A DNA stretch of 64,000 bases from Escherichia coli (GTDB lineage Bacteria; Pseudomonadota; Gammaproteobacteria; Enterobacterales; Enterobacteriaceae). The DNA lies in the NCBI RefSeq assembly GCF_044324785.1, contig NZ_CP172127.1; one strand, given 5' to 3'. How positions within the stretch are numbered: the stretch's first letter is position 1; the number at the start of each line of letters is the position of its first letter. The notes under the pieces are model-generated. The model saw nothing but the letters and a program-made list of their open reading frames with translations, was not told the origin of the DNA and did no database searches. Shown here piece by piece: positions 1 to 22,814 of this stretch. Position numbers and translations under genes: made by a program.

Positions 1-1554
1 AGGAAACATCAACGGACAACAGATTCATGCATTCTGTACTTCCTTTTACCGACAGGTGCACGAGCGTATTACTGAACGTAATCACACGGCCAGTCCAGCA
101 CCACCGGTGGTATTACGCTGGTTGCGGGAACAACATGGAGGAGCAACAATGCGATGCCTGTTGCTGCTCAGCCAGACGAGCATTTGCCATCCACGGGTCA
201 GTGCCACGGTTGATGAAGAATGTTCGCAACGGGTGGATTTATTGCAACAGACATGGCGGGTGATAAGTGCTGACGGACAATGCCGGGTGGAAAGGTGTTT
301 TCAGGCTGCCCGGGGTGATACATCCGGCCAGTATATTGCGTTAAAAACAGTTGCATTGTCTCTGGGGTTACCGGTTGTGACCGGTATTACCCATCGCCCG
401 GTACAGCGCTGTACATTGATTACAGCTCAGTGAACAGCGCTGTTGTGCAGTCAACGAGGTTTTCTGTCTTTTCGTCGGTCATTCAGCATCATTAAACGGG
501 TCTCTGCCTCTTTCTGTTCCTGTGGTGTCACTTCCCCGCACGGCTGACCGTTCAGGTTGTAACGGGCGCCACCTGCTATTAACGCACGGTAATAGCGCGG
601 AGACTGCACATAAGACGCCACTGCTGCATGTAATGTACCAGCGCCAAACGCCAGTTCTCGGATGGCGATATCCTGTATCAGGTCGTCAGGTATCCCCACT
701 TTAAGTGGTTTTGTTTTTTTCCCGGTTGAATGACTCAGGCCAGAGTTCCACAAGACGAATAATGCGCTTACGGTTTTTGCTCTGGCGTTTTGTCATGTCG
801 CCACGGTGTTTTATCAGCAGGTTTCTGTTTATCGTTCAACTGTGGTATCTGGTCACCGGCCTTCATTTTGTATGCTGTGTCCGTTTTATTCTGCAGCGGC
901 GTTGCCGGTGATTTACTGAAAATACCCTGCGGTTTACGGTTAATGGTCAGAGTTACCATCAATTTTGTTACCTCGCGCTGTCAATGGAAGTAGTACCTCA
1001 TCCGATATCTGAAAATGTTTTCCGGTGGATGTTACAGCGAATTTCATGTAAGACATGTTGTTGTCGGTATTGTTCAGTACTGTGCGTTGTGAGCGTATTC
1101 GTTATCAGACAGAGGGGCAGGGAACAAACGTCAGAGGTTAAGGATATCCGGGAACAAATGGCGTAAACGGACATCTCAGTGCCTGAGAAACAGTACAGGT
1201 CAGGCCATCATGGCCTGCAAACAGAGCCCTGGCGACCCCGTGGCCGAAAACGAAACAATAACCCGCGCGCAGTGCGAGGAATCCGGATGTGAAGCAATCA
1301 GCAGGTAATATTAATGGCAGGACCAGCAGGTTCTTTAAACAAACGAACATGCTGTAATTGATATTTTGCTTATTGTATTTTCTTTTTAGTTATTAAATTA
1401 ATTTATTTACGAAAAATTTTCTGCAGATACAGGATGGGAATTCAGGGTGTCATCACGCCTTATGATGACACCCTTCCCCTGGTTGTGGAAAACCGAAGGA
1501 TATATCAGGTTCAGCAACAAAATCAGTGAGCTGAAAGATACCAGTCCCCCAGCT

Positions 1555-2574
1555 TCAGCAGCTTTCACGTAAACATAAACAGGGCTCAATGAATATCTGA
1601 TTGCTCCAGTTACCTTCTTTAATTCGTTCCAGCAAAACATTTCCTGCTTCCAGACCAATTTTCCTGTGAGGAACGGCCATTGTTGTTAATGATGGTTGGC
1701 AAACTTTGCTGACGTCACTGTCACCAAATCCTACTACGGCGAGCTCGTCTGGAACTTTGATCCGTCTTCGTTGACATTCATAGAGAACACCGCAGGCTAA
1801 CTCATCTGACACACATACCAGGGCATCCAGTTCCGGCCATGCGAGCAAAAATTCCGGTAGTTGTGATGCTCCGGTGGAAAAAACAGGTGGCAGAGCAGCG
1901 TTAATAACACGGTTGGGAGACATATGATGGCGTAACATAGCTTTATACCATCCCTGTAAATGCTGCTGAAAGATCCACTGTTCCTGGTTAGCGCATAGCA
2001 AACCGATATTCTGATAACCACGTTGTACCAGCATATCCGTCAGCTCGAACATTGCTGCAACATTATCAATACCAATGTTGATATCTATCGGATCAGTACG
2101 AATGGCACCGATTTCTATAACAGGAATCGAGGCATTTTTGAGCAAGTGACGCACGGTACTATTATGCTCAACACTAAGCAAAATTGCTGCAGCGATATTA
2201 GAAGCCAGCAGGGTTTCCAGCAGTTTTTCTTCTTGTTCCAGACGATGGCGTGACTCAGCCAGGATTATTTGATACCCCGCTGGTTGTAGCACATGTTGCA
2301 GCCCGGCAAACATTTCCGTGCATCCCGCTTCAGCCAGGTTTGGCACGACCATTGCGATCGTGTGTGAAGATGCCGATGCCAGTGCGCTTGCAGTGAGGTT
2401 GGGCATATACCCTAATTCATTAACTGCGGCTTCAATCTTCTCCCTCAATTTATCTGAAACTTGTTCGGGAGTGCGTAACGCTCTGGATACAGTCATTGTG
2501 CCAACTCCCGCGAGTTGCGCGACATCAGCAATAGTGACTTTACCTGTACTACGACGTTTTCGGGTTATTGCCAT
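1555..2574 (-). CDS. LacI-family transcriptional regulator
   Basis: 339-aa ORF; N-terminus KVTIADVAQLAGVGTMTVSRAL is a LacI/GalR-type HTH, followed by a sugar-binding-type core; divergent from the PTS operon with palindromic operator-like sites between them. Confidence 0.85.
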   Translation of the reverse strand: MAITRKRRSTGKVTIADVAQLAGVGTMTVSRALRTPEQVSDKLREKIEAAVNELGYMPNLTASALASASSHTIAMVVPNLAEAGCTEMFAGLQHVLQPAGYQIILAESRHRLEQEEKLLETLLASNIAAAILLSVEHNSTVRHLLKNASIPVIEIGAIRTDPIDINIGIDNVAAMFELTDMLVQRGYQNIGLLCANQEQWIFQQHLQGWYKAMLRHHMSPNRVINAALPPVFSTGASQLPEFLLAWPELDALVCVSDELACGVLYECQRRRIKVPDELAVVGFGDSDVSKVCQPSLTTMAVPHRKIGLEAGNVLLERIKEGNWSNQIFIEPCLCLRESC

Positions 2575-2706
2575 ACAAAATCCTGCTCAGCGACTACATA
2601 TGGAGATCTTTTATTACTTATCATCAACGGCTTCCTGCACTGCCAGTAGCAGAGTATACCTCTTAATATCTGCCATAAGTCTGGATTTAATCAGTGAAAT
2701 CTATTT

Positions 2707-2720
2707 TGATAGCGCTATCA
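2707..2720. promoter_or_regulatory. Putative LacI-type operator, perfect 14-bp palindrome TGATAGCGCTATCA
   Basis: Perfect inverted repeat with central CG, in the divergent intergenic region between the LacI-family gene and the PTS operon. Confidence 0.55.
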
Positions 2721-2740
2721 CAAATTCGAACAATACCTCC

Positions 2741-2754
2741 TGATAGCGCTATCT
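2741..2754. promoter_or_regulatory. Second operator-like site TGATAGCGCTATCT (13/14 match to first)
   Basis: Near-identical copy 34 bp downstream of the first palindrome. Confidence 0.5.
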
Positions 2755-2825
2755 TTGTGATATTGATCGCAGATATACCGTCGTTACTTGAATACATTCT
2801 GGTCATATAAATAAGAAATTAGGGG

Positions 2826-3275
2826 GTGGGAGTGCTTAATATCTGGCTTTCTGATTCAACAATCGCATTACGAAAGAATGCCGCAACCTGGCAGCAGGCA
2901 TTAGATATCTGTGCCAGACCGTTACTGGATGCAGAGATAATTACGACGGATTATCTCAGTGCGATAAAGACACAACATGAAAAACTGGGGCCTTATTATG
3001 TCCTGGCACCCGGGCTGGCCATGCCGCATGCCCGACCAGAAGAAGGGGCAAAAGGATTAGGTTTATCATTATTAAAACTTGAAGAAGGTGTCAGTTTTCA
3101 TACAGAGGAATTTGATCCTGTAGATGTTATCATTTTACTTGCCGCACCAGACAAACACAGTCATATCGAAATGATATCTGCACTGGCTGAGTTATTCTCC
3201 AGCGAAAAAGATTTACATGAATTGCATCAGGCTCGCAATGTGGAGGAAATAAAAAAGATAATTTCACGGTTCTGA
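2826..3275 (+). CDS. PTS EIIA component (ascorbate/mannitol-type IIA)
   Basis: 149-aa ORF with the conserved phosphorylatable His region (LAMPHARPEEG) typical of PTS EIIA-2 domains; first gene of PTS operon; GTG start assumed. Confidence 0.8.
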   Translation: MGVLNIWLSDSTIALRKNAATWQQALDICARPLLDAEIITTDYLSAIKTQHEKLGPYYVLAPGLAMPHARPEEGAKGLGLSLLKLEEGVSFHTEEFDPVDVIILLAAPDKHSHIEMISALAELFSSEKDLHELHQARNVEEIKKIISRF

Positions 3276-3353
3276 TTACATTATAAATTCAGTCTTTTCA
3301 CAACATTGCGCCGTTGCGTGATGGGACTTCTTCAACTTAAAATGGTGAATATA

Positions 3354-3626
3354 ATGAAAATTATGGCTATTTGTGGCTCAGGGCTTGGTAGTAGTTTTAT
3401 GGTCGAAATGAATATTAAAAAAGTTCTGAAAAAAATGGATATAGAGGCGGAAGTGGAACATTCCGATCTCTCATCAGCAACGCCAGGGGCTGCCGATTTA
3501 TTTGTGATGGCCAAAGATATTGCTGCCAGTGCCAGCGTACCGGAAAGTCAGTTGGTGGTTATCAACAACATCATTGATATTAATGAACTCGAAACGCAAC
3601 TGCGTAACTGGTTAGCAAAACAATAA
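3354..3626 (+). CDS. PTS EIIB component (ascorbate family)
   Basis: About 90 aa from internal ATG; N-terminal MKIMAICGSGLGSS matches the IIB active-site Cys loop (compare UlaB/SgcB); the longer track ORF starts at a TTG. Confidence 0.75.
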   Translation: MKIMAICGSGLGSSFMVEMNIKKVLKKMDIEAEVEHSDLSSATPGAADLFVMAKDIAASASVPESQLVVINNIIDINELETQLRNWLAKQ

Positions 3627-3648
3627 CCTTAATTGAAGCGAGGTGGAT

Positions 3649-5037
3649 ATGTTTATCCTTGAAACGCTGAATTTTGTTGTTGATATACTTAAAGTGCCCG
3701 CGATACTGGTCGGCTTGATTGCCTTAATTGGTCTGGTTGCCCAGAAAAAATCTTTTTCAGATGTTGTTAAAGGTACAATTAAAACTATTCTCGGCTTTAT
3801 TGTACTGGGCGGTGGTGCCACTGTTTTGGTTGGTTCGTTAAATCCTCTTGGGAGTATGTTTGAACATGCCTTTAATATTCAGGGCATCATTCCGAATAAT
3901 GAGGCTATTGTTTCTATTGCGCTGGAAAAATATGGCGCATCGACGGCCCTTATTATGGCATTTGGTATGGTGGCGAATATTATTGTTGCCCGCTTTACCC
4001 GCCTTAAATATATCTTCCTGACCGGACACCACACATTTTACATGGCCTGCATGATTGGTGTGATTCTGACAGTGGCTGGTTTTGAAGGTATATCACTGGT
4101 CTTTACCGGTTCTCTTATTCTGGGACTTGTGATGGCATTTTTCCCGGCATTAGCACAACGCTATATGAAGCGTATTACGGGGAATGATGACATTGCTTTT
4201 GGTCACTTTGGCACTCTGGGATATGTACTTTCTGGCTGGATTGGCAGCGTGTGCGGTAAAGGTTCCCGCTCCACCGAAGAGATGAATTTGCCCAAAAATC
4301 TGAGCTTCCTGCGCGACAGTTCCATCTCTATTTCTCTTACGATGATGGTGATTTATCTGATCATGGCGATCAGTGCTGGTCGTGAGTTCGTTGAAAGCCA
4401 GTTCAGTGGTGGTCAAAACTACCTTGTCTACGCCATCATAATGGCCATCACCTTCGCTGCTGGTGTATTTATTATTCTGCAAGGCGTGCGTTTAATCCTT
4501 GCTGAAATAGTTCCGGCATTTACCGGGTTTTCAGAAAAGCTGGTGCCGAATGCCCGTCCGGCCCTCGATTGCCCGGTTGTGTATCCGTATGCGCCAAACG
4601 CAGTGTTAGTTGGTTTCTTGTTTAGCTTTTTTGGCGGTCTGGTAGGGCTATTTTTGTTGGGACAGATGAAACTGGTGTTGATTCTTCCGGGTGTCGTTCC
4701 TCACTTTTTTACCGGGGCGGCTGCTGGCGTATTTGGTAACGCTACGGGGGGACGTCGTGGCGCAATGATTGGTGCTTTTGCGAATGGCTTATTGATTACC
4801 TTCCTGCCAGTACTGTTATTGCCGGTTCTTGGGGCGATAGGCTTTGCTAATACGACCTTTTCCGATGCAGATTTTGGTGCTGTCGGCATCGTCCTCGGAA
4901 ACCTGGCACGTTATCTCTCACCTTTTGCCATCACCGGACTTGTAGTAGCGCTATTTGTGCTGCTGGTTGCCTGGAACATTTTCGCCAGTAACAAAATCGC
5001 TGCCAAAGCGCAGAAGAAGAGTGGAGCCAAATCATGA
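3649..5037 (+). CDS. PTS EIIC permease (ascorbate family, UlaA/SgaT-like)
   Basis: About 460-aa polytopic membrane protein with Gly-rich hydrophobic segments; RBS GAGGTGG upstream; stop overlaps next start (ATGA). Confidence 0.85.
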   Translation: MFILETLNFVVDILKVPAILVGLIALIGLVAQKKSFSDVVKGTIKTILGFIVLGGGATVLVGSLNPLGSMFEHAFNIQGIIPNNEAIVSIALEKYGASTALIMAFGMVANIIVARFTRLKYIFLTGHHTFYMACMIGVILTVAGFEGISLVFTGSLILGLVMAFFPALAQRYMKRITGNDDIAFGHFGTLGYVLSGWIGSVCGKGSRSTEEMNLPKNLSFLRDSSISISLTMMVIYLIMAISAGREFVESQFSGGQNYLVYAIIMAITFAAGVFIILQGVRLILAEIVPAFTGFSEKLVPNARPALDCPVVYPYAPNAVLVGFLFSFFGGLVGLFLLGQMKLVLILPGVVPHFFTGAAAGVFGNATGGRRGAMIGAFANGLLITFLPVLLLPVLGAIGFANTTFSDADFGAVGIVLGNLARYLSPFAITGLVVALFVLLVAWNIFASNKIAAKAQKKSGAKS

Positions 5038-5864
5038 ATGTTAAAGAATTGACTCAATTTGCACGGGATATACGTATCCAGACGCTTAAATCATTAACTC
5101 ATCTCGGCTTCGGTCATTATGGTGGCAGCATGTCGGTTGTGGAAACGCTGGCAGTGCTTTATGGCGCTGTAATGAAAATTGATCCTGCTGCTCCCGACTG
5201 GCCTGAGCGTGACTATTTTATCCTGTCCAAAGGACATGCCGGACCTGCTCTCTACAGTACTCTGGCGCTGAAAGGCTACTTTCCACTGGAAGAATTAAGC
5301 ACCTTAAATCAGAACGGAACCCGCTTACCAAGTCATCCGGATCGGCTAAAAACGTGTGGTGTTGATAGCACCACAGGATCGCTGGGGCAGGGGATATCCA
5401 TTGCCGGAGGGATGGCGCTGTCGCATAAACTGGCGGGGCGCAAGAATCGGGTTTTTTGTATTGTCGGCGATGGCGAACTTAATGAAGGCCAATGTTGGGA
5501 AGCTTTCCAGTTTATCGCGCATCATCGTTTGAATAACCTCACTGTGTTTGTGGACTGGAACAAACAGCAGCTTGATGGTCAACTGGATGAAATTATTAAT
5601 CCATTTGATTTGGAAGGAAAATTCCGGGCTTTCGGTTTTGATGTCGTGACAGTGAAGGGCGATGATATTGAGGGCTTGTTGAATGTAGTTAAACCTGTCC
5701 TGCCAGCTGAGGCCAGACCGAGAGTGGTCATTCTCGATAGCATTAAAGGGCAGGGGGTGCCGTGTCTCGAGCAACTCAGTAATTCTCATCACTTACGCCT
5801 CACAGAAGAGATGAAGGGGACGCTAAACGAAACAATTCGCCAACTGGAGGCTATGCATGATTAA
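5034..5864 (+). CDS. Transketolase, N-terminal (TPP-binding) subunit
   Basis: 276 aa; motifs GHYGGSMSVVE and GSLGQGISIAGGMA are the split-transketolase N-terminal subunit signature; translationally coupled to the PTS IIC gene. Confidence 0.85.
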   Translation: MNVKELTQFARDIRIQTLKSLTHLGFGHYGGSMSVVETLAVLYGAVMKIDPAAPDWPERDYFILSKGHAGPALYSTLALKGYFPLEELSTLNQNGTRLPSHPDRLKTCGVDSTTGSLGQGISIAGGMALSHKLAGRKNRVFCIVGDGELNEGQCWEAFQFIAHHRLNNLTVFVDWNKQQLDGQLDEIINPFDLEGKFRAFGFDVVTVKGDDIEGLLNVVKPVLPAEARPRVVILDSIKGQGVPCLEQLSNSHHLRLTEEMKGTLNETIRQLEAMHD

Positions 5865-6810
5865 TCTCGCACCGGCAGGACAAAAAGACAGCATTGAAAT
5901 GCGCAAAGTTTATGCAGATTTTATCGCGCAACAGAGTAAAAACGTCAGTTCTGTCATTGCTCTTGAGGCTGATTTAATGAGTTCCATGGCAATGGACAGC
6001 GTGGCGCAGGATTATCCAGATCACGTCATTAATTGCGGCATTATGGAAGCCAATGTTATCGGCACAGCTGCAGGGCTGGCCTTAACCGGGCGCAAGCCAT
6101 TCGTGCATACCTTTACCGCATTTGCCAGTCGTCGCTGTTTTGATCAACTCTTTATGTCGCTTGATTACCAGGGCGCTAACGTCAAAGTTATAGCTTCTGA
6201 TGCGGGTGTTGCTGCTTGCCACAATGGCGGAACACATATGTCATTTGAAGATATGGGAATTGTGCGCGGGCTGGCGCATTCGGTGGTGATGGAGATGACA
6301 GATGCCGTAATGTTCAGCGATATCTTGCGTCAACTCGTTGCACTGGAAGGATTTTATTGGATTCGTACCATTCGGAAGCAAGCAGCGAGTATTTACGCAC
6401 CAGGTACAACCTTTACAATTGGCAAAGGGCAGGTATTACGTGAAGGTACGGATGTCACCTTAATTGCTAATGGCATTATGGTGGTGGAAGCCCTGGAGGC
6501 CGCACGTCAACTTGAGCTGGCTGGGGTAAGTGTAGCGGTGATTGATATGTTTACGCTCAAACCCGTTGATCGGATGTTAATTAAAAATTATGCCGAAAAA
6601 ACAGGACGGATCGTAACATGTGAAAACCATAGTATTCATAATGGATTAGGTTCAGCGGTTGCTGAAGTGCTTGTAGAAACTTGTCCTGTGCCCATGCGTC
6701 GGGTGGGGGTTAAAGAGCGGTATGGCCAGGTTGGAGCTCAGGACTTTTTACAGAGAGAGTACGGGTTAACCGCGCAAGATATTGTGGCGGCAGCCAGAGA
6801 GCTATTGTAA
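5857..6810 (+). CDS. Transketolase, C-terminal subunit
   Basis: 317 aa; pyrimidine-binding/C-terminal transketolase domain; overlaps upstream gene by 8 nt. Confidence 0.85.
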   Translation: MINLAPAGQKDSIEMRKVYADFIAQQSKNVSSVIALEADLMSSMAMDSVAQDYPDHVINCGIMEANVIGTAAGLALTGRKPFVHTFTAFASRRCFDQLFMSLDYQGANVKVIASDAGVAACHNGGTHMSFEDMGIVRGLAHSVVMEMTDAVMFSDILRQLVALEGFYWIRTIRKQAASIYAPGTTFTIGKGQVLREGTDVTLIANGIMVVEALEAARQLELAGVSVAVIDMFTLKPVDRMLIKNYAEKTGRIVTCENHSIHNGLGSAVAEVLVETCPVPMRRVGVKERYGQVGAQDFLQREYGLTAQDIVAAARELL

Positions 6811-6928
6811 TTCATGGAGTTTGTTTACCATTCTGTTTTTCTTAAAAGTGAGTGTCTGTGCGGTCACTAAACTCGGTAATAAAGCAGTTCATTGCAGGAT
6901 AAGAAGCGTTTGGTTGTGTCGTTTTACC

Positions 6929-7185
6929 GTAAGAACCGACCGCCGTATGTAGCCATTAAGCCAGTATTGGTAACGTAGGTGCCCACCTTTTCAAACTGGT
7001 GGACGCCTGTTATGGAGCAAAAACATTATCCGCAGAACCCCGCAGATCATTTTCAAATGAGTTAAACTTCAAATGGTTAAACTGGTTTTGCAACCAGGAG
7101 CCTCTGTTGCCCGTATTGCCCGGGAACACGATATCAATGATAACCTCCTGTTCAAATGGCTCAGACTCTGGCAGAACGTAAGGTA
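6929..7185 (+). mobile_element. IS66-family left-end remnant (IR plus frameshifted 5' part of tnpA)
   Basis: Terminal sequence GTAAGAACCGACCGCCGTATGTAGCCAT resembles the IS66 IR at 27504; translated fragment ...INDNLLFKWLRLWQN matches IS66 TnpA at 26994-27419. Confidence 0.6.
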
Positions 7186-8036
7186 AAGGGAGATGAAAAA
7201 GGCAATAGCAGAACTGAGTGACAGTGAAACCATTCTGGCGTACAGGGTTGGATGGTGAAACTGATAAAAAACCCCCTCTGAAATTCTGTCAGAGGGGCTA
7301 GTCAATAAGGGAATAATATTCAACATGAAGATGTCTTCTGGGAATGTTTATATAGCAAATGCTTTCACTCCGGTAATTAATTTCCGTGATTAACTGCTTT
7401 CGATCAATAAAGGAATTGCAAAAGTGTGATCTTGTTCACGACATCGTGGATAATAATATGCCTGATGTCTGAATCCGGAAACAGTGCTCTGGCGGGTTTC
7501 ATGTGAAGTTGACGGATAAAAAATCCGCACGACCAGACAGACGTGCGGTTTACGAAATTCGTAACAAGAGGCTTTTCTACGGATCACGTGGTGCGTGCCA
7601 CGTGAAATTTTTGTAGCGCAAAATGTGTGATGTGTAAATACAAGGAAGGAAAAAAGTTAAATCGGTGGAAGTCCATACCTGCCACGTGTACGTCTGCATT
7701 CCTCGTTTTGAACAGAATTCTCACCAGACATCGTGAATTTCTCATTCAATCATCAGAGATATTAACCAGGATTTTTATTGTTTTGTGATATCAGCAGTGC
7801 AGGTATACAGACATTAAAGTAATCAGGTTTATTATAACCACCTTTACAAAGTTGTATGTGTTTATAATTTAAGGATTTTAATGCCAGTCGTTTTCTGCTG
7901 CTTAAATTGAGGTCGCATATTATACACAATAATATTCCTGGCATTATTAAATTAATAAAAGAGGATTCTTATCACTGTATTTTTGCTCCGCACTACCGTT
8001 CTGGCTGGTGAAGTAATAATACAGGAGAATAACAGA

Positions 8037-9233
<1,197 letters not shown>

Positions 9234-10949: not shown

Positions 10950-11639
10950 TTACGAGGCGATCGCTGCAATAAAGCGTGTCGTTATCTGCTGCGGACGAGT
11001 GATTGCCCCCCCAACCACCACGGTATGAGCGCCTAATGTCAGGCAACGTGCGGCGCACTCCGGGGTGTCGACATTCCCTTCCGCCACGACCGGAACGCTG
11101 ACCGCTTTCAGGACCTCACGTAAGAATCCACAGTCATTTTCCGCCAGCACATGCCTGGCAGTTTCTGCGGTATAGCCGTAGAGCGTAGTGCCCACACAGT
11201 CAAAACCCAGACGTTCAGCTGTCACTGCCTCTTCTACTGTTGCTATATCTGCCATCAGAAGTATGGACGGGTAGCGAGCGCGGATCTGCGTGACCAGTTC
11301 TTCCAGCGTCTGACCACCAGGGCGCGGGCGCGCAGTAGCATCCAGGGCAATAATTTCCGGCTCAACGGTCATCAGCTCATCCACTTCCCGGAGAGTGGCC
11401 GTGATAAACACCTCACTGCCAGGGTAATCGCGTTTGATAATCCCTATCATCGGAAGGGAGACAATCTCTTTGATAGCACTAATATCCGCCACGCTGTTGG
11501 CACGGATACCTGCAGCACCACCTTGTGCTGCCGCCAGCGCCATACGTGACATAATAAACGGACTATGTAGAGGCTCATTTTCCAGAGCCTGACAGGAGAC
11601 GATTAATTTACCTTTCAGGGAATCCAGTACAGTTTTCAT
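10950..11639 (-). CDS. nanE: N-acetylmannosamine-6-phosphate 2-epimerase (NanE family)
   Basis: 229 aa; N-terminal [20 protein letters not shown] and overall TIM-barrel NanE-like sequence; start overlaps stop of upstream PTS gene. Confidence 0.85.
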
Positions 11640-13195
11640 TACGATAAAATCTCTTCGACTTCGTTTTTAATGATGGTGACATGAGGGCCATAAATCACCT
11701 GAACGCCGTTGCCGCGAATAATCACGCCACGCGCTCCGGCCACTTTCAGCGCAGCTTCATCTACCTTACTGCTCTCTTTAACCGTCACGCGCAGGCGCGT
11801 GGCGCAACAGTCCACCTCTTCCAGATTCTCTTTGCCTCCCAGCCCGGCAATGACTGCCGCTGCGCGTTCACTCTGAGGCTGGCCGGATTCAACCTGGGTT
11901 ACGTTCTCACGCCCCGGCGTCAGCCAGCCAAAGCGGTTAATCAAATAGCGGAAAGTAAAGTAGTAAAGGAAGAACCACGGTATTCCCACTATGGGGACAT
12001 ACATCCAGTTTGTTTTAGCTTCCCCCTGCAACACGCCGAAGAGAAGGAAATCGATAAGCCCGCCCGAAAAGGTTTGCCCAATAGTGATATGTAAAATATG
12101 GGCGACCATAAACGCCAGACCATCGAAGAAGGCGTGAATTACGTATAATACGGGCGCGACAAACAGGAAGGAGAACTCAACAGGCTCAGTGATTCCCGTC
12201 AGGAAAGAGGTCAGGGCTGCCGACAAAAGTAGTCCGGCGACAACCTTTCTATTCTCCGGCTTTGCAGTATGGTACATTGCCAGACATGCGCCAAGCAGGC
12301 CAAACATCATGGTGATAAAGCGCCCGGACATAAAGCGAGCGGTACCCGCGTAGAACTGCTGCGTATTCGGATCGGCAAGTTGGGCAAAGAAAATCCGCTG
12401 CGTACCTTCAACCAACTGGCCGTTGACGATTTCACTGCCGCCCAGCGCCGTCGTCCAGAACGGCAAATAAAAGATATGGTGTAAACCCAGTGGACCGAGC
12501 ATACGCAGGATGAAGCCGTACAACAGCGTCCCCAGATAGCCCGTCGCATCCACCAGGTCGCCCAGTCCAAAAATGAGTTTCTGGAAATGCGGCCACACCA
12601 CCGTCATAACCGCACCCACTACTATCGCGGCAAGGGAGCTGATAATGGGTACAAAACGAGAACCACTAAAAAAACCGAGAAACTGAGGTAGTGAGACTTT
12701 ATTGAAACGGCTATGTAAAGTGCAGGTGACGAGACCAATCACCACCCCACCAAACACACCAGTTTCCAGTGTCTGAATACCAAGCGTCATCCCCTGGCCA
12801 ACTGAAGCGGGGTTCTTGTGCGCCAGCGTTCCGTTGAGCGTTAATAAGGCGTTGATGGTGGCATTCATCACCAGAAACGCCAGCAATGACGCAAGCCCGG
12901 CAGTGCCTTTATCCGATTTCGCCAGCCCCACGGCGACGCCGACTGCAAAGAGTACCGACAGGTTGGCAAACACAATAGAACCTGCGCTGGTCATGATTGT
13001 GAATATTGCCTGCAACCAGTCGGCATCTAAAAACGGATAAGCCGTCAACGTGTTTGGATTTGACAACGCGCCACCAATCCCTAATAACAGCCCTGCTGCG
13101 GGCAATACCGCAATCGGCAGCATGAAGGATTTTCCGAACCGCTGCGCTTTTTCAAACCATCCCCCCGATGAAGCGCCGCTAAACATTTGCATCAT
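11639..13195 (-). CDS. PTS EIICB component (glucose/maltose/N-acetylglucosamine family)
   Basis: 518 aa; N-terminal EIIC membrane domain with GITEPxEF motif, C-terminal EIIB domain with CATRLR active-site Cys. Confidence 0.85.
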
Positions 13196-13360
13196 TTTAT
13201 CATCTCCTCGATTTTTGATGAAAATTTTTACTATAATTATTCTTATAAATAAAAATCACCATCAAAATCTAAGAAGTCGATCATACTTTTTTAAAATGTC
13301 TGGCATCAATCCCCTCCTTTCCGTCACACTATCAACAGATAAACGCATTAAGGATTTTAC

Positions 13361-14185
13361 ATGTCAGAAAATGAAAACCTGCTGCTGAGATTGCGCCAGA
13401 GCGTTGATGGATATAGCCGAACACAACAGAAGCTGGGAGAGTTTGTACTTAGCGATCCGGCAAAAGTTGTCTACCTGACGATTACCGAACTTGCGCGTGA
13501 AAGCGGCACCAGCGAGGCTAGCGTCACACGTCTGTGCCGAACGCTTGGGTGTAAGGGCTATAACGAATTCAAAATGGCGCTGGCACTCGATCTCCGACAA
13601 GTACAGTTTGTAGAGCACGGCGGTGATGAGATTGACAATGTGGTCAATGAATCCGTGCAAGCAATACAGGACACAGCAAAATTACTCGACAGAGCCTTGC
13701 TGGAAGCAGCCGCGCTTGCACTGCATCAGGCTCAGTCAGTGCAGATTTATGGCGTAGCAGCCAGTGCCATTCTGGGGGAGTATTTACATTATAAACTCCT
13801 GCGTCTGGGGAAACCCGCACAATTGTTCAGCGATATGCATCGTGCTGCCATGAACGCCACAACACTTAGTAAAAACACGTTCGTGGTGGCGATTTCCAGT
13901 TCTGGATCCACGCGCGATCTGCTGCATGTCGTAAAACTAGCGCGTAAGCAAGGTGTGCGTGTACTGGCGCTGAGTAATACACCGCGCAGTCCGTTAGCTT
14001 CGCTGAGTGATATTCAACTGGTCGCGGCCAAACCGGAAGGACCCTTGAGTGCCGGCGCGCTGACTGCCAAAGTGGGAGTGATGCTGTTGGTAGAGCTACT
14101 CACCACATCGCTGATTGCGCTGGATGACCAGTACAGCGAGGTGAGCCAGAAAACAGCCAGCGCGACCCTACCGCTACTGCTTTAA
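13361..14185 (+). CDS. RpiR/MurR-family transcriptional regulator (HTH plus SIS domain)
   Basis: 274 aa; N-terminal HTH (TITELARESGTSEASVTRLCRTLG) and C-terminal SIS sugar-phosphate-binding domain; divergent from the PTS-nanE operon. Confidence 0.85.
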   Translation: MSENENLLLRLRQSVDGYSRTQQKLGEFVLSDPAKVVYLTITELARESGTSEASVTRLCRTLGCKGYNEFKMALALDLRQVQFVEHGGDEIDNVVNESVQAIQDTAKLLDRALLEAAALALHQAQSVQIYGVAASAILGEYLHYKLLRLGKPAQLFSDMHRAAMNATTLSKNTFVVAISSSGSTRDLLHVVKLARKQGVRVLALSNTPRSPLASLSDIQLVAAKPEGPLSAGALTAKVGVMLLVELLTTSLIALDDQYSEVSQKTASATLPLLL

Positions 14186-20843: not shown

Positions 20844-22814
20844 ATGTATATGAATGTAATCAGAACTGTCATTTGTACATTAATTATAGTCCCGGTGGGA
20901 CTACAGGCAGCGACCAGTCATTCTTCTATGGCTAAAGATACAATCACCATTGTCGCGACAGGAAATCAGAACACGGTATTTGAAACGCCGTCGATGGTCA
21001 GTGTCGTCACGAATGACACACCGTGGAGTCAGAATGCGGTTACATCGGCCGGCATGCTGAAAGGTGTTGCCGGTCTCAGCCAGACTGGTGCAGGACGGAC
21101 CAATGGGCAGACCTTTAATCTACGCGGCTATGACAAAAGCGGGGTACTTGTTCTTGTTGACGGCGTCCGCCAACTCAGTGACATGGCAAAAAGCAGTGGC
21201 ACTTATCTGGATCCGGCTCTTGTCAAACGTATCGAAGTTGTCCGCGGGCCAAACTCCAGTCTGTACGGCAGTGGCGGGCTGGGAGGTGTAGTGGACTTCA
21301 GAACTGCCGATGCAGCAGATTTCCTTCCCCCCGGAGAGACAAACGGTTTAAGTCTGTGGGGAAATATTGCCAGTGGTGACCACAGCACAGGCTCGGGGCT
21401 CACCTGGTTCGGTAAAACCGGAAAAACAGATGCGCTCCTTTCTGTCATTATGCGTAAAAGAGGTAATATCTATCAAAGTGATGGTGAGCGCGCACCTAAC
21501 AAGGAAAAACCTGCAGCCCTGTTTGCGAAAGGCTCTGTCGGTATAACAGACAGTAACAAAGCAGGTGCCAGCTTGCGTCTCTACCGGAATAACACCACTG
21601 AACCGGGCAATCCCACTCAGACACATGGTGACAGCGGCCTGCGTGACAGAAAAACAGTACAAAATGACGTACAGTTCTGGTACCAGTACGCTCCTGTGGA
21701 TAACAGCCTCATCAATGTAAAGTCAACGTTATATCTCAGTGATATCACTATCAAGACAAACGGTCACAACAAAACGGCAGAATGGAGAAACAACAGAACC
21801 TCCGGTGTTAATGTTGTCAACAGGAGTCATACTCTGATTTTTCCGGGAGCCCATCAGTTAAGTTATGGCGCTGAATATTACCGTCAGCAGCAGAAGCCAG
21901 AAGGCTCTGCCACACTATATCCGGAAGGAAATATTGACTTTACATCGTTGTATTTCCAGGATGAAATGACAATGAAAAGCTACCCTGTTAACATTATCGT
22001 CGGTTCCCGCTATGACCGGTACAAGAGCTTCAATCCCCGTGCCGGAGAACTGAAAGCCGAACGCCTGTCCCCAAGGGCGGCGATTTCAGTCTCACCGACA
22101 GACTGGCTGATGATGTACGGCTCCATATCCTCTGCATTCCGAGCGCCCACAATGGCAGAAATGTACAGGGATGATGTACATTTTTACCGCAAGGGTAAAC
22201 CCAATTACTGGGTTCCTAACCTTAATCTGAAACCAGAAAATAACATCACCCGTGAGATTGGCGCAGGTATTCAACTGGATGGCCTGCTTACAGACAATGA
22301 CCGGCTGCAGTTAAAAGGCGGATATTTCGGAACGGATGCCAGAAACTATATTGCCACACGCGTGGATATGAAACGGATGCGTTCTTATTCTTATAATGTA
22401 TCCCGGGCCCGTATCTGGGGATGGGATATGCAGGGAAATTACCAGTCTGATTATGTTGACTGGGTGCTTTCTTATAACCGGACGGAAAGTATGGATGCCA
22501 GCAGCAGGGAATGGCTGGGCTCCGGCAATCCTGACACACTTATCAGTGACATCAGCATACCTGTTGGTCATAGAGGCGTTTATGCCGGATGGCGTGCTGA
22601 ACTTTCAGCATCAGCCACGCATGTGAAAAAAGGCGACTCCTATCAGGCTGGCTATGCCATACATTCCTTTTCACTGTCTTATAAGCCTGTAAGTGTTAAA
22701 GGCTTTGAGGCGTCAGTAACTCTGGATAATGCCTTCAACAAGCTTGCCATGAATGGCAAAGGTGTGCCGCTTTCAGGCCGAACTGTCAGTCTTTATACCC
22801 GTTATCAGTGGTAA
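20844..22814 (+). CDS. TonB-dependent outer-membrane heme/hemoglobin receptor (ChuA/ShuA/HmuR family)
   Basis: 656 aa; signal peptide, TonB box DTITIVATG, plug and barrel motifs (GRTNGQTFNLRGYD, LVLVDGVRQ), C-terminal YQW; collinear with ChuA but clearly divergent. Confidence 0.85.
   Translation: MYMNVIRTVICTLIIVPVGLQAATSHSSMAKDTITIVATGNQNTVFETPSMVSVVTNDTPWSQNAVTSAGMLKGVAGLSQTGAGRTNGQTFNLRGYDKSGVLVLVDGVRQLSDMAKSSGTYLDPALVKRIEVVRGPNSSLYGSGGLGGVVDFRTADAADFLPPGETNGLSLWGNIASGDHSTGSGLTWFGKTGKTDALLSVIMRKRGNIYQSDGERAPNKEKPAALFAKGSVGITDSNKAGASLRLYRNNTTEPGNPTQTHGDSGLRDRKTVQNDVQFWYQYAPVDNSLINVKSTLYLSDITIKTNGHNKTAEWRNNRTSGVNVVNRSHTLIFPGAHQLSYGAEYYRQQQKPEGSATLYPEGNIDFTSLYFQDEMTMKSYPVNIIVGSRYDRYKSFNPRAGELKAERLSPRAAISVSPTDWLMMYGSISSAFRAPTMAEMYRDDVHFYRKGKPNYWVPNLNLKPENNITREIGAGIQLDGLLTDNDRLQLKGGYFGTDARNYIATRVDMKRMRSYSYNVSRARIWGWDMQGNYQSDYVDWVLSYNRTESMDASSREWLGSGNPDTLISDISIPVGHRGVYAGWRAELSASATHVKKGDSYQAGYAIHSFSLSYKPVSVKGFEASVTLDNAFNKLAMNGKGVPLSGRTVSLYTRYQW

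Follow-up and report, generated by a model that had tools for sequence, protein, structure and literature searches.

A conserved phosphotransferase and split-transketolase cassette with a predicted dual operator on an Escherichia coli genomic island

Positions 1555-6810 of a 64,000-nucleotide stretch of Escherichia coli DNA (assembly GCF_044324785.1, contig NZ_CP172127.1), referred to here as the window, contain a six-gene cassette. It encodes a LacI/GalR-family regulator, the three components of a phosphotransferase system (PTS) of the L-ascorbate family and the two subunits of a split transketolase. It is highly probable that the five structural genes form one operon behind a divergent regulator gene and that the whole cassette is orthologous to a locus found across the Enterobacterales. 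The gene content and promoter layout suggest that the cassette may encode a CRP-activated, repressor-controlled two-step route into the pentose-phosphate pathway, in which PTS phosphorylation would be followed by ketol transfer; the chances of this are about even. An earlier note, made from the DNA letters alone, had described an ascorbate-type PTS and a split transketolase under a divergent LacI-family repressor. This description is borne out by Pfam and NCBIfam matches and by the comparative data below.

The six genes are intact, separate open reading frames (ORFs) with clear family assignments, based on ORF calls and on Pfam and NCBIfam models:
1555-2574, minus strand: LacI/GalR-family regulator, 339 amino acids (PF00356 and Peripla_BP)
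2832-3275, plus strand: PTS enzyme IIA (EIIA) of the mannitol/fructose/ascorbate type, 147 amino acids (PF00359, 118.6 bits)
3354-3626, plus strand: PTS enzyme IIB (EIIB), 90 amino acids (PF02302, 62 bits)
3649-5037, plus strand: PTS enzyme IIC (EIIC) of the L-ascorbate (UlaA/SgaT) family, EIIC-GAT, 462 amino acids (PF03611, 510.5 bits)
5034-5864, plus strand: N subunit of a split transketolase (TktN), 276 amino acids (PF00456, 159.6 bits)
5857-6810, plus strand: pyrimidine-binding C subunit of a split transketolase (TktC), 317 amino acids (PF02779 and PF02780)

The EIIA start is the GTG at 2832, which is the RefSeq choice; an alternative GTG is present at 2826. The regulator gene is divergent from the operon IIA-IIB-IIC-TktN-TktC (2832-6810). 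The earlier note had described the PTS as fused to the transketolase and all five structural genes as translationally coupled. All six genes are separate ORFs, and coupling is compatible only with the 3' part of the operon, where the IIC and TktN genes overlap by 4 nucleotides (nt; ATGA) and the TktN and TktC genes by 8 nt. Gaps of 78 nt and 22 nt separate IIA from IIB and IIB from IIC. Each gene is preceded by its own Shine-Dalgarno-like sequence. No convincing plus-strand terminator is present within the operon. An Rfam search of the leader and the IIA-IIB spacer returned no RNA element, and its one sub-threshold match lies outside the operon.

A scan of one genome per species placed relatives in 232 stretches, and 80 loci were kept. 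Wherever the DNA suffices, the kept loci contain the regulator followed by IIA-IIB-IIC-TktN-TktC in colinear order, and Gilliamella is the sole exception. Salmonella, Serratia and Rahnella have these six genes in identical order. This comparison of genomic context had been proposed in the earlier note and gives colinearity of the six genes in approximately 80 Enterobacterales species. No other enzyme gene is linked to the cassette in any of these loci. In the Gilliamella sp. locus, from the bee gut (L086 4908-8359), the regulator, IIA, IIB and IIC genes are followed by a GNAT acetyltransferase gene, without transketolase genes. Ratios of nonsynonymous to synonymous substitution (dN/dS) against E. 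albertii are 0.03-0.09 for all six genes (regulator 0.039, IIA 0.087, IIB 0.049), indicating strong purifying selection.

In most species the native site of the cassette is bordered by yfcD (nudix)/yfcE/gst and, at the opposite end, by pta-ackA. In E. albertii and the cryptic Escherichia species, the cassette lies between yfcD and dcuC-pta-ackA. When the first 9.3 kb of the window are compared by blastn with the loci from E. albertii (L007) and Escherichia sp. (L008), a single unstranded feature emerges:
1551-6811: mobilised cassette, 85.7% and 84.5% nucleotide identity to L007 and L008

No homology to these two loci was found outside 1551-6811 in the 9.3 kb compared. Because the homology spans exactly this interval, the E. 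coli copy is the ancestral cassette, 5.26 kb in length, transplanted into an IS-rich genomic island.

The cassette is the orthologue of STM2340-STM2345 of Salmonella Typhimurium, placed by gene order beside pta/ackA. There, tktC corresponds to STM2340/STM2341, the PTS to STM2342-2344 and the regulator, 'PagR', to STM2345. The gene products are 88% (regulator), 73% (IIA), 94% (IIB), 92% (IIC), 89% (TktN) and 86% (TktC) identical. The two loci have the same gene order and orientation and the same O1/O2/CRP region, which is described below. They differ in location: Salmonella has its copy at the ancestral yfcD/pta-ackA site, E. coli on a genomic island. STM2345 has been given the name PagR (PMC12413039). 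Citing papers state that PagR raises SPI-2 gene expression and that PhoB induces PagR when phosphate is low (PMC12413039, PMC12351708). For Salmonella tktC, one further paper cites its expression only (PMC12651746).

The intergenic region between the regulator gene and the operon contains the following predicted elements:
2707-2720, unstranded: predicted operator O1, an exact match to the perfect 14-base-pair (bp) palindrome TGATAGCGCTATCA, with a central CG
2741-2754, unstranded: predicted operator O2, TGATAGCGCTATCT, 34 bp downstream of O1 and with one mismatch to it (final T for A)
2756-2771, unstranded: CRP-like site, TGTGA-N6-TCGCA, starting 1 nt after O2 and centred at 2763.5
2793-2798, plus strand: predicted -10 hexamer of the operon, TACATT
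2653-2658, minus strand: candidate -10 hexamer of the regulator's own promoter, TATACT (weak prediction), within a conserved AGTATAC block at 2653-2659

A central CG is typical of LacI-family sites. The earlier note had reported two copies of the palindrome as the likely repressor sites. The first copy is exact and the second is not, and the operator-like character of both is supported by comparison of 81 intergenic regions, made up of the 80 fetched loci and the window. O1 is identical in 81/81 regions. This includes Gilliamella, whose regulator is 49% identical. O2 is present in 80 regions, with the form TG[A/G]TAGCGCTA[T/C]CT, and its distance from O1 is 34, 35 or 36 bp in 51, 27 and 2 of these 80 regions. 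In the alignment, the rest of the intergenic sequence has mostly diverged around the conserved operators, and AGTATAC is among the few non-operator blocks that are conserved. In the 64-kb window, the palindrome has three matches at two or fewer mismatches, compared with 0.22 expected from shuffled sequences, and the O1/O2 pair is far beyond chance. Taken together, this makes it very probable that the palindromes are repressor sites. The third match, TGATATCACTATCA at 21740-21753, has two mismatches, does not have the central CG and lies within an ORF. It is probably a chance match.

The CRP-like site has the consensus TGTGA-N6-TC[A/G]CA. It has two or fewer mismatches to the TGTGA/TCACA half-sites in 78 of 80 regions and a fixed offset from O2 in 79 of 80. 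A TAnnnT hexamer begins 29-30 nt from the centre of the CRP-like site in 78 of 80 regions. This hexamer is TAAAGT in 50 regions and either TAAAGT or TAGAGT in most species. With the -10 hexamer at 2793-2798, transcription would start at approximately 2805, which places the CRP-like site at -41.5, O2 at approximately -57.5 and O1 at approximately -91.5. Counted from the inferred start, class II spacing, with the CRP site centred at approximately -41.5, is kept in 78 of 80 regions. CRP control of the operon is thus likely, at a lower level of confidence than the assignment of the operators. The earlier account of the promoter had recognised the palindromes and overlooked both the CRP-like site that abuts O2 and the geometry it implies. 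The Gilliamella intergenic region has O1 only, with no O2 and no recognisable CRP site.

The regulator matches PF00356 (residues 14-59, 70 bits), Peripla_BP_3 (99 bits) and PF13377/PF00532, and its structural relatives are 3H5O (GntR) and 3E3M. The best NCBIfam models are GntR of P. aeruginosa (270 bits), IdnR (225), GntR (202) and CytR (181). Since these scores are far under the model cut-offs (270 against 400, 225 against 500 and 181 against 436 for the P. aeruginosa GntR, IdnR and CytR models), the regulator is not an orthologue of GntR, IdnR or CytR. It resembles the CytR/GntR/IdnR branch in its palindromic operator with a central CG, and CytR in having an operator that adjoins a CRP site. 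An operator beside a CRP site is the arrangement of CytR-type anti-activation. By family and by the position of its predicted sites, the regulator is predicted to be a repressor of the operon that an effector would release.

Within E. coli, the nearest relative of the cassette IIC is the vpe-encoded IIC (63% identical) and not UlaA. The E. coli vpe locus was reportedly described by Martinez-Jehanne et al. in 2012. Like the cassette, vpe has a divergent LacI-family regulator gene followed by IIA, IIB and IIC genes (vpeR-ABC). The first 60 residues of the two regulators, which contain the DNA-binding region, are nearly identical. Overall identity is 43% and the effector domains differ. The vpe intergenic region (L087 6075-6125) contains TGATAGCGCTATCA and two variants, TGGTAGCGTTATCA and AGATAGCGCTATCA. 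Because the DNA-binding regions are nearly identical and the operator is common to both loci, the two repressors should bind the same operators, and they should respond to different effectors. Regulatory cross-talk is likely in strains with both the cassette and vpe. The vpe locus differs in that it does not have transketolase genes, encodes a shorter IIC (418 amino acids) and adjoins the deoK genes. It is also far more common, as approximately 1,300 of 5,426 complete E. coli genomes have matches at 60-80% nucleotide identity. Identity of the cassette with vpe itself was considered and rejected; vpe is a separate paralogue beside deoK, at approximately 67% nucleotide identity and without tkt genes. 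Two papers summarise vpe as affecting capsule, virulence and gut colonisation (PMC5382810, PMC6455142).

Within the PTS, the predicted phospho-histidine of IIA is His66 in AMPHA, and the predicted phospho-cysteine of IIB is Cys7 in AICGSG, near the N-terminus. The PF03611 match of IIC spans residues 14-410, and IIC scores 989.5 against a cut-off of 890 with NF009549 ('ascorbate IIC'). IIC is 84-97% identical across the Enterobacterales, where it has thousands of close relatives. It matches the UlaA structures 4RP8 and 5ZOV, although the relationship to E. coli UlaA (4RP8) is distant, with an E-value of 4e-51. The cassette PTS shares its family and three-protein layout with E. coli UlaABC (SgaTBA), which differs in having a DeoR-type regulator, UlaR, rather than a LacI-type regulator. 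UlaA residues H135, Q139, H194 and D314 are taken here to line the ascorbate site, with Gln139 contacting ascorbate. H135, H194 and D314 are kept in the cassette IIC and Q139 is replaced by Tyr.

The enzyme genes ulaG, ulaD, ulaE and ulaF are absent from the cassette and from the DNA beside it in the window, and from the Salmonella, Serratia and Rahnella loci with listed genes. In most of the 80 species loci the immediate neighbours of the cassette are yfcD and pta-ackA, and no ulaG/D/E/F homologue is linked in the approximately 80 loci. By sequence comparison, the PTS substrate is probably a sugar that is related to L-ascorbate and not identical to it. The likeliest candidates are a ketose, an aldonolactone and a breakdown product of ascorbate. 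The earlier note had suggested import of a phosphosugar or a polyol. The former does not fit a PTS, which phosphorylates its substrate during uptake. Polyol uptake is unlikely, since it calls for a dehydrogenase and the approximately 80 loci contain no linked gene for one. The accessible literature reports no substrate for the cassette, vpe or the Salmonella counterpart, and no operator for the Salmonella locus. The earlier note's view of the substrate as unknown stands. The locus as such has known counterparts: an orthologue in Salmonella (STM2340-2345), a paralogue in vpe and an analogue in pneumococcal ula2.

The closest solved relative of both transketolase subunits is the split transketolase of Carboxydothermus hydrogenoformans (TktN to 6YAK, E = 3e-64; TktC to 6YAJ, E = 6e-70). 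TktN has the residues H28, H68, H101, G145-D146-G147, N176 and H253, which are thiamine-diphosphate-binding or catalytic. H28, H101, D146, N176 and H253 are conserved in 80-81 orthologues, and H68 is placed by motif only. In TktC, the cofactor-activating residue E64 and the phosphate contacts R16, S43 and R173 align to human E366, R318, S345 and R474. The counterparts of E64, R16, S43 and R173 in E. coli TktA are E411, R358, S385 and R520. Ketol transfer between sugar phosphates is the predicted activity of TktN/TktC from these residues.

The family assignment of the transketolase in the earlier note holds, and its substrate-contact motif is non-canonical. Residues 113-128 of TktC, ASDAGVAACHNGGTHM, align without gaps to the canonical ATHAGLTVGEDGASHQ of 6YAJ. 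The Carboxydothermus and cassette enzymes have their cofactor-binding residues in common and differ in this motif. The canonical THxGxxxGEDGxTHQ is replaced by SDAGVAACHNGGTHM in TktC. With TktA numbering, H461 corresponds to D115, E468 to H122 and D469 to N123, and H473 is kept as H127. In transketolase, the role of H461 is to contact the substrate phosphate, and that of D469 is to contact the acceptor C2 hydroxyl and set stereoselectivity. All 79 orthologues have D115, H122, N123, H127, R16, E64 and R173, and 78 have S43.

Among 1.8 billion representative proteins, the substitutions mark a large branch with the motif [GS]D[PA]G...NGGTHM, apart from the canonical branch with ATHAG...GEDGxSHQ. 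Two PTS-linked enzymes, P0123 (representative of the L093 cluster) and P0152 (from L098), have the substrate-contact substitutions as well. Three distant loci contain members of this branch, all of which keep His at position 122:
L093, from a Streptobacillus-like genome: PRD-type regulator, IIA, IIB, IIC, TktN and TktC
L098 772-4808, from a metagenomic genome: IIA, IIB, IIC, TktN and TktC, adjoining a DeoR/PdxA-family/GntP/DUF1537-kinase cluster
L097: the same transketolase branch with an ABC transporter and an FGGY kinase only, and no other enzyme

These three contexts support a 'phosphorylate, then transketolase' design. Other distant transketolase relatives occur in unrelated contexts, such as an inositol-like cluster or beside a DeoC aldolase. 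The cluster beside the L098 module is typical of the catabolism of four-carbon acid sugars, among them the ascorbate breakdown product L-threonate. This adjacency is a single case and may be due to chance.

A related design is found in the D-apiose pathway, which was reportedly characterised by Carter et al. in 2018. In this pathway a ketose is phosphorylated by AplK and then cleaved by a dedicated two-subunit transketolase, AptA/AptB, whose subunits match TktN/TktC in size and whose genes likewise overlap by 8 nt. It differs in using an ABC transporter and an FGGY kinase rather than a PTS, and the AptB motif is NAGASYGPLASTHH. A D-apiose cluster is present in E. coli ST131 (PMC13001218). Assignment of TktN/TktC as the apulose-4-phosphate transketolase AptA/AptB was rejected, as identities are 39% and 28%, the motif is different and the kinase AplK is not present. 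The tkt1 gene of avian pathogenic E. coli was also rejected as a match; it is a full-length transketolase gene of 1,998 bp in the metE-ysgA island (PMC3349570, PMC12928451). In pneumococcus, the ula2 operon (ulaR2-ulaB2-ulaA2-tktN-tktC) has an ascorbate-family PTS followed by a split transketolase, in one transcript and with no other enzyme (PMC4324149). It differs from the cassette in its regulator, UlaR2, which is an activator and not a LacI-type repressor, and the IIA gene is absent from the operon in most strains.

In the proposed two-step route, the operon would be driven from a class II CRP-dependent promoter (CRP at 2756-2771, -10 at 2793-2798, start at approximately 2805), and two repressor dimers would occupy O1 (2707-2720) and O2 (2741-2754). 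With O2 directly beside the CRP site, repressor bound there would keep out CRP or the alpha C-terminal domain of RNA polymerase. Repression would then be anti-activation, as with CytR, and not the covering of -10 and -35 elements. The phosphorylated substrate is envisaged to release the repressor. Phosphate would pass from EI and HPr to IIA His66, then to IIB Cys7 and to the sugar in IIC. The resulting sugar phosphate would serve as ketol donor (or acceptor) for the split transketolase and yield pentose-phosphate or glycolytic intermediates with no further specific enzyme. That the transketolase acts directly on the PTS product is plausible and falls somewhat short of an even chance. The recurrence of the IIA-IIB-IIC-TktN-TktC module with other regulator types outside the Enterobacterales (L093, L098 and pneumococcal ula2) is consistent with such a step.

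Several observations are not congruent with this route. The predicted operators sit upstream of the core promoter and not over it, and a weak sigma-70-like match, TTGATA-17-AACAAT, lies over O1 as an alternative, less conserved promoter. Coupling is not universal, since approximately 100 bp lie between IIC and TktN in Rahnella. The vpe and Gilliamella versions do not have transketolase genes, and the PTS product is therefore evidently manageable without a dedicated enzyme. Shaw et al. (2018) reportedly found that TktC of Salmonella works as an ordinary transketolase that can substitute for TktA/TktB, which is equally compatible with a role in simply raising flux. The most specific form of the proposal is on balance doubtful. 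It describes a complete two-step route for a carbohydrate, with ketoses and products of ascorbate oxidation (L-erythrulose, for instance) among the candidates. In it, the acceptor/phosphate pocket of the transketolase would be remodelled (H461D/E468H/D469N), the route would be common to Enterobacterales (Salmonella, Klebsiella, Enterobacter, Serratia), the Streptobacillus-like genome and L098, and the operators shared with vpe would link the two loci in a single regulatory circuit.

According to the main rival, the PTS yields a standard intermediate, and the transketolase is a co-induced extra isoenzyme which adds non-oxidative pentose-phosphate capacity. In this case D-xylulose, for example, would give xylulose 5-phosphate, sedoheptulose would give sedoheptulose 7-phosphate, and D-glucono-lactone or gluconate would give 6-phosphogluconate. 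The transketolase-free vpe and Gilliamella versions and the reported interchangeability of Salmonella TktC with TktA/TktB fit this explanation, as do the retention of E64 and of the phosphate contacts R16, S43 and R173 and the fact that the nearest characterised relatives of the regulator are the gluconate/idonate repressors GntR and IdnR. The H461/E468/D469 substitutions, however, are invariant in 79 orthologues and in distant PTS- and kinase-linked relatives, which argues for a specialised pocket and not for a spare copy. Two extra genes in a 5-kb cassette would also be costly to keep across phyla if a housekeeping transketolase were enough. This explanation is rather unlikely. A second uptake system for L-ascorbate (or D-isoascorbate or dehydroascorbate), using unlinked UlaG/D/E/F and with the transketolase handling xylulose 5-phosphate, is more improbable still. 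IIC is in the UlaA family and passes the NCBI 'ascorbate IIC' model, pneumococcal ula2 is induced 2-3 fold by ascorbic acid via UlaR2 (PMC4324149), ulaR2 matters in the ascorbate-rich vitreous humour (PMC6780617), and the ula operon of pneumococcus likewise has a tkt gene of its own (PMC4324149). Against this, the pneumococcal induction is weak and could be caused by an ascorbate breakdown product, ulaG/D/E/F homologues are linked in none of the approximately 80 loci, and the hosts already possess UlaABC. The distance of IIC from UlaA and the Tyr in place of Gln139, with its presumed ligand role, are similarly not congruent with ascorbate uptake.

Two further explanations are both unlikely because of the conservation of the cassette. 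The regulator could mainly control virulence genes, with the PTS and transketolase as signal input, and the statements of citing papers on PagR, SPI-2 and PhoB (PMC12413039, PMC12351708) and on the effects of the vpe paralogue (PMC5382810, PMC6455142) point in this direction. The cassette is nonetheless kept in plant, soil and insect genera without SPI-2 (Rahnella, Serratia, Kosakonia, Mangrovibacter), its five structural genes are under strong purifying selection and the invariant operators are in its own promoter region, which leaves a mainly regulatory role very improbable. It is equally hard to credit that the E. coli cassette is a decaying island passenger without current function. Only a remnant of it is left in 234 genomes and it is present in 2.4% of complete genomes, as described below, but where it is present the six ORFs and the promoter elements are intact and identity is at least 99% in 132 genomes.

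The locus is already annotated in RefSeq, and parts of the Salmonella orthologue have been studied. In Salmonella, separate studies have reportedly dealt with the transketolase (Shaw 2018) and with the regulator (Jiang 2020). Relative to the accessible literature, four points are added: the dual operator and its invariance, the conservation of the CRP geometry, the operator common with vpe and the conserved non-canonical transketolase pocket. Many enteric bacteria of clinical importance have the cassette, and the E. coli copy is part of an island that is typical of extraintestinal and avian pathogenic strains. Links to virulence are close by, in the paralogue vpe (virulence and gut colonisation) and in the Salmonella regulator (SPI-2 expression). 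The comparative data yield parts that can be tested, namely the operator sequences, the predicted CRP-dependent promoter and start, and the diagnostic transketolase residues. The identity of the sugar would define a nutrient niche for cassette carriers and could assign a function to a broad uncharacterised branch of split transketolases.

Within E. coli, the cassette is present in 132 of 5,426 complete genomes (2.4%), in all of them at 99% identity or higher. The ORFs are intact in these genomes, which are from human, poultry, pig and cattle sources. Cassette-positive strains include BEN2908, F11 and CLSC36. Positions 1400-7000 of the window are 100% identical to several complete E. coli genomes. 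A further 234 genomes contain only a 179-bp 3' remnant of the TktC gene, beside the insertion sequence (IS) IS1 and in the same island backbone; one example is L092 6001-6179 (E. coli CRE1540). Because these genomes keep only the remnant, the cassette appears to have been deleted repeatedly, and the adjacent IS1 points to recurrent loss that is IS-mediated.

In strain CLSC36, the cassette lies in an IS-rich island with ireA. This island ends at an integrase beside tRNA-Sec, approximately 30 kb downstream of the cassette. No tRNA gene was found in the 64-kb window with ARAGORN and Rfam. As the CLSC36 island ends at tRNA-Sec and the window contains no tRNA gene, the window strain differs from CLSC36 beyond approximately 18.7 kb. 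Directly 3' of the cassette, at 6999-7174, is a frameshifted, truncated transposase fragment, as RefSeq annotates it in CLSC36, where the sequence is identical. It is followed at 7983-9233 by a YadA-like (trimeric autotransporter) adhesin ORF with a run of Gln-Ala repeats. This ORF is 1,251 nt long in the window and 1,476 nt in CLSC36, and the alignment breaks at 8586-8665. A second carbohydrate cluster is present on the island at approximately 10950-14185 and encodes a ManNAc-6-P 2-epimerase-like protein, a maltose/glucose-type PTS IIC and an RpiR/MurR regulator. This cluster may correspond to aec-35 to aec-37 of the selC island of strain BEN2908. At 49955-50261, two tandem matches to the STAXI RNA (RF01728; 61.6 and 66.3 bits) score above the gathering score. 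The STAXI motif is typical of integrative elements.

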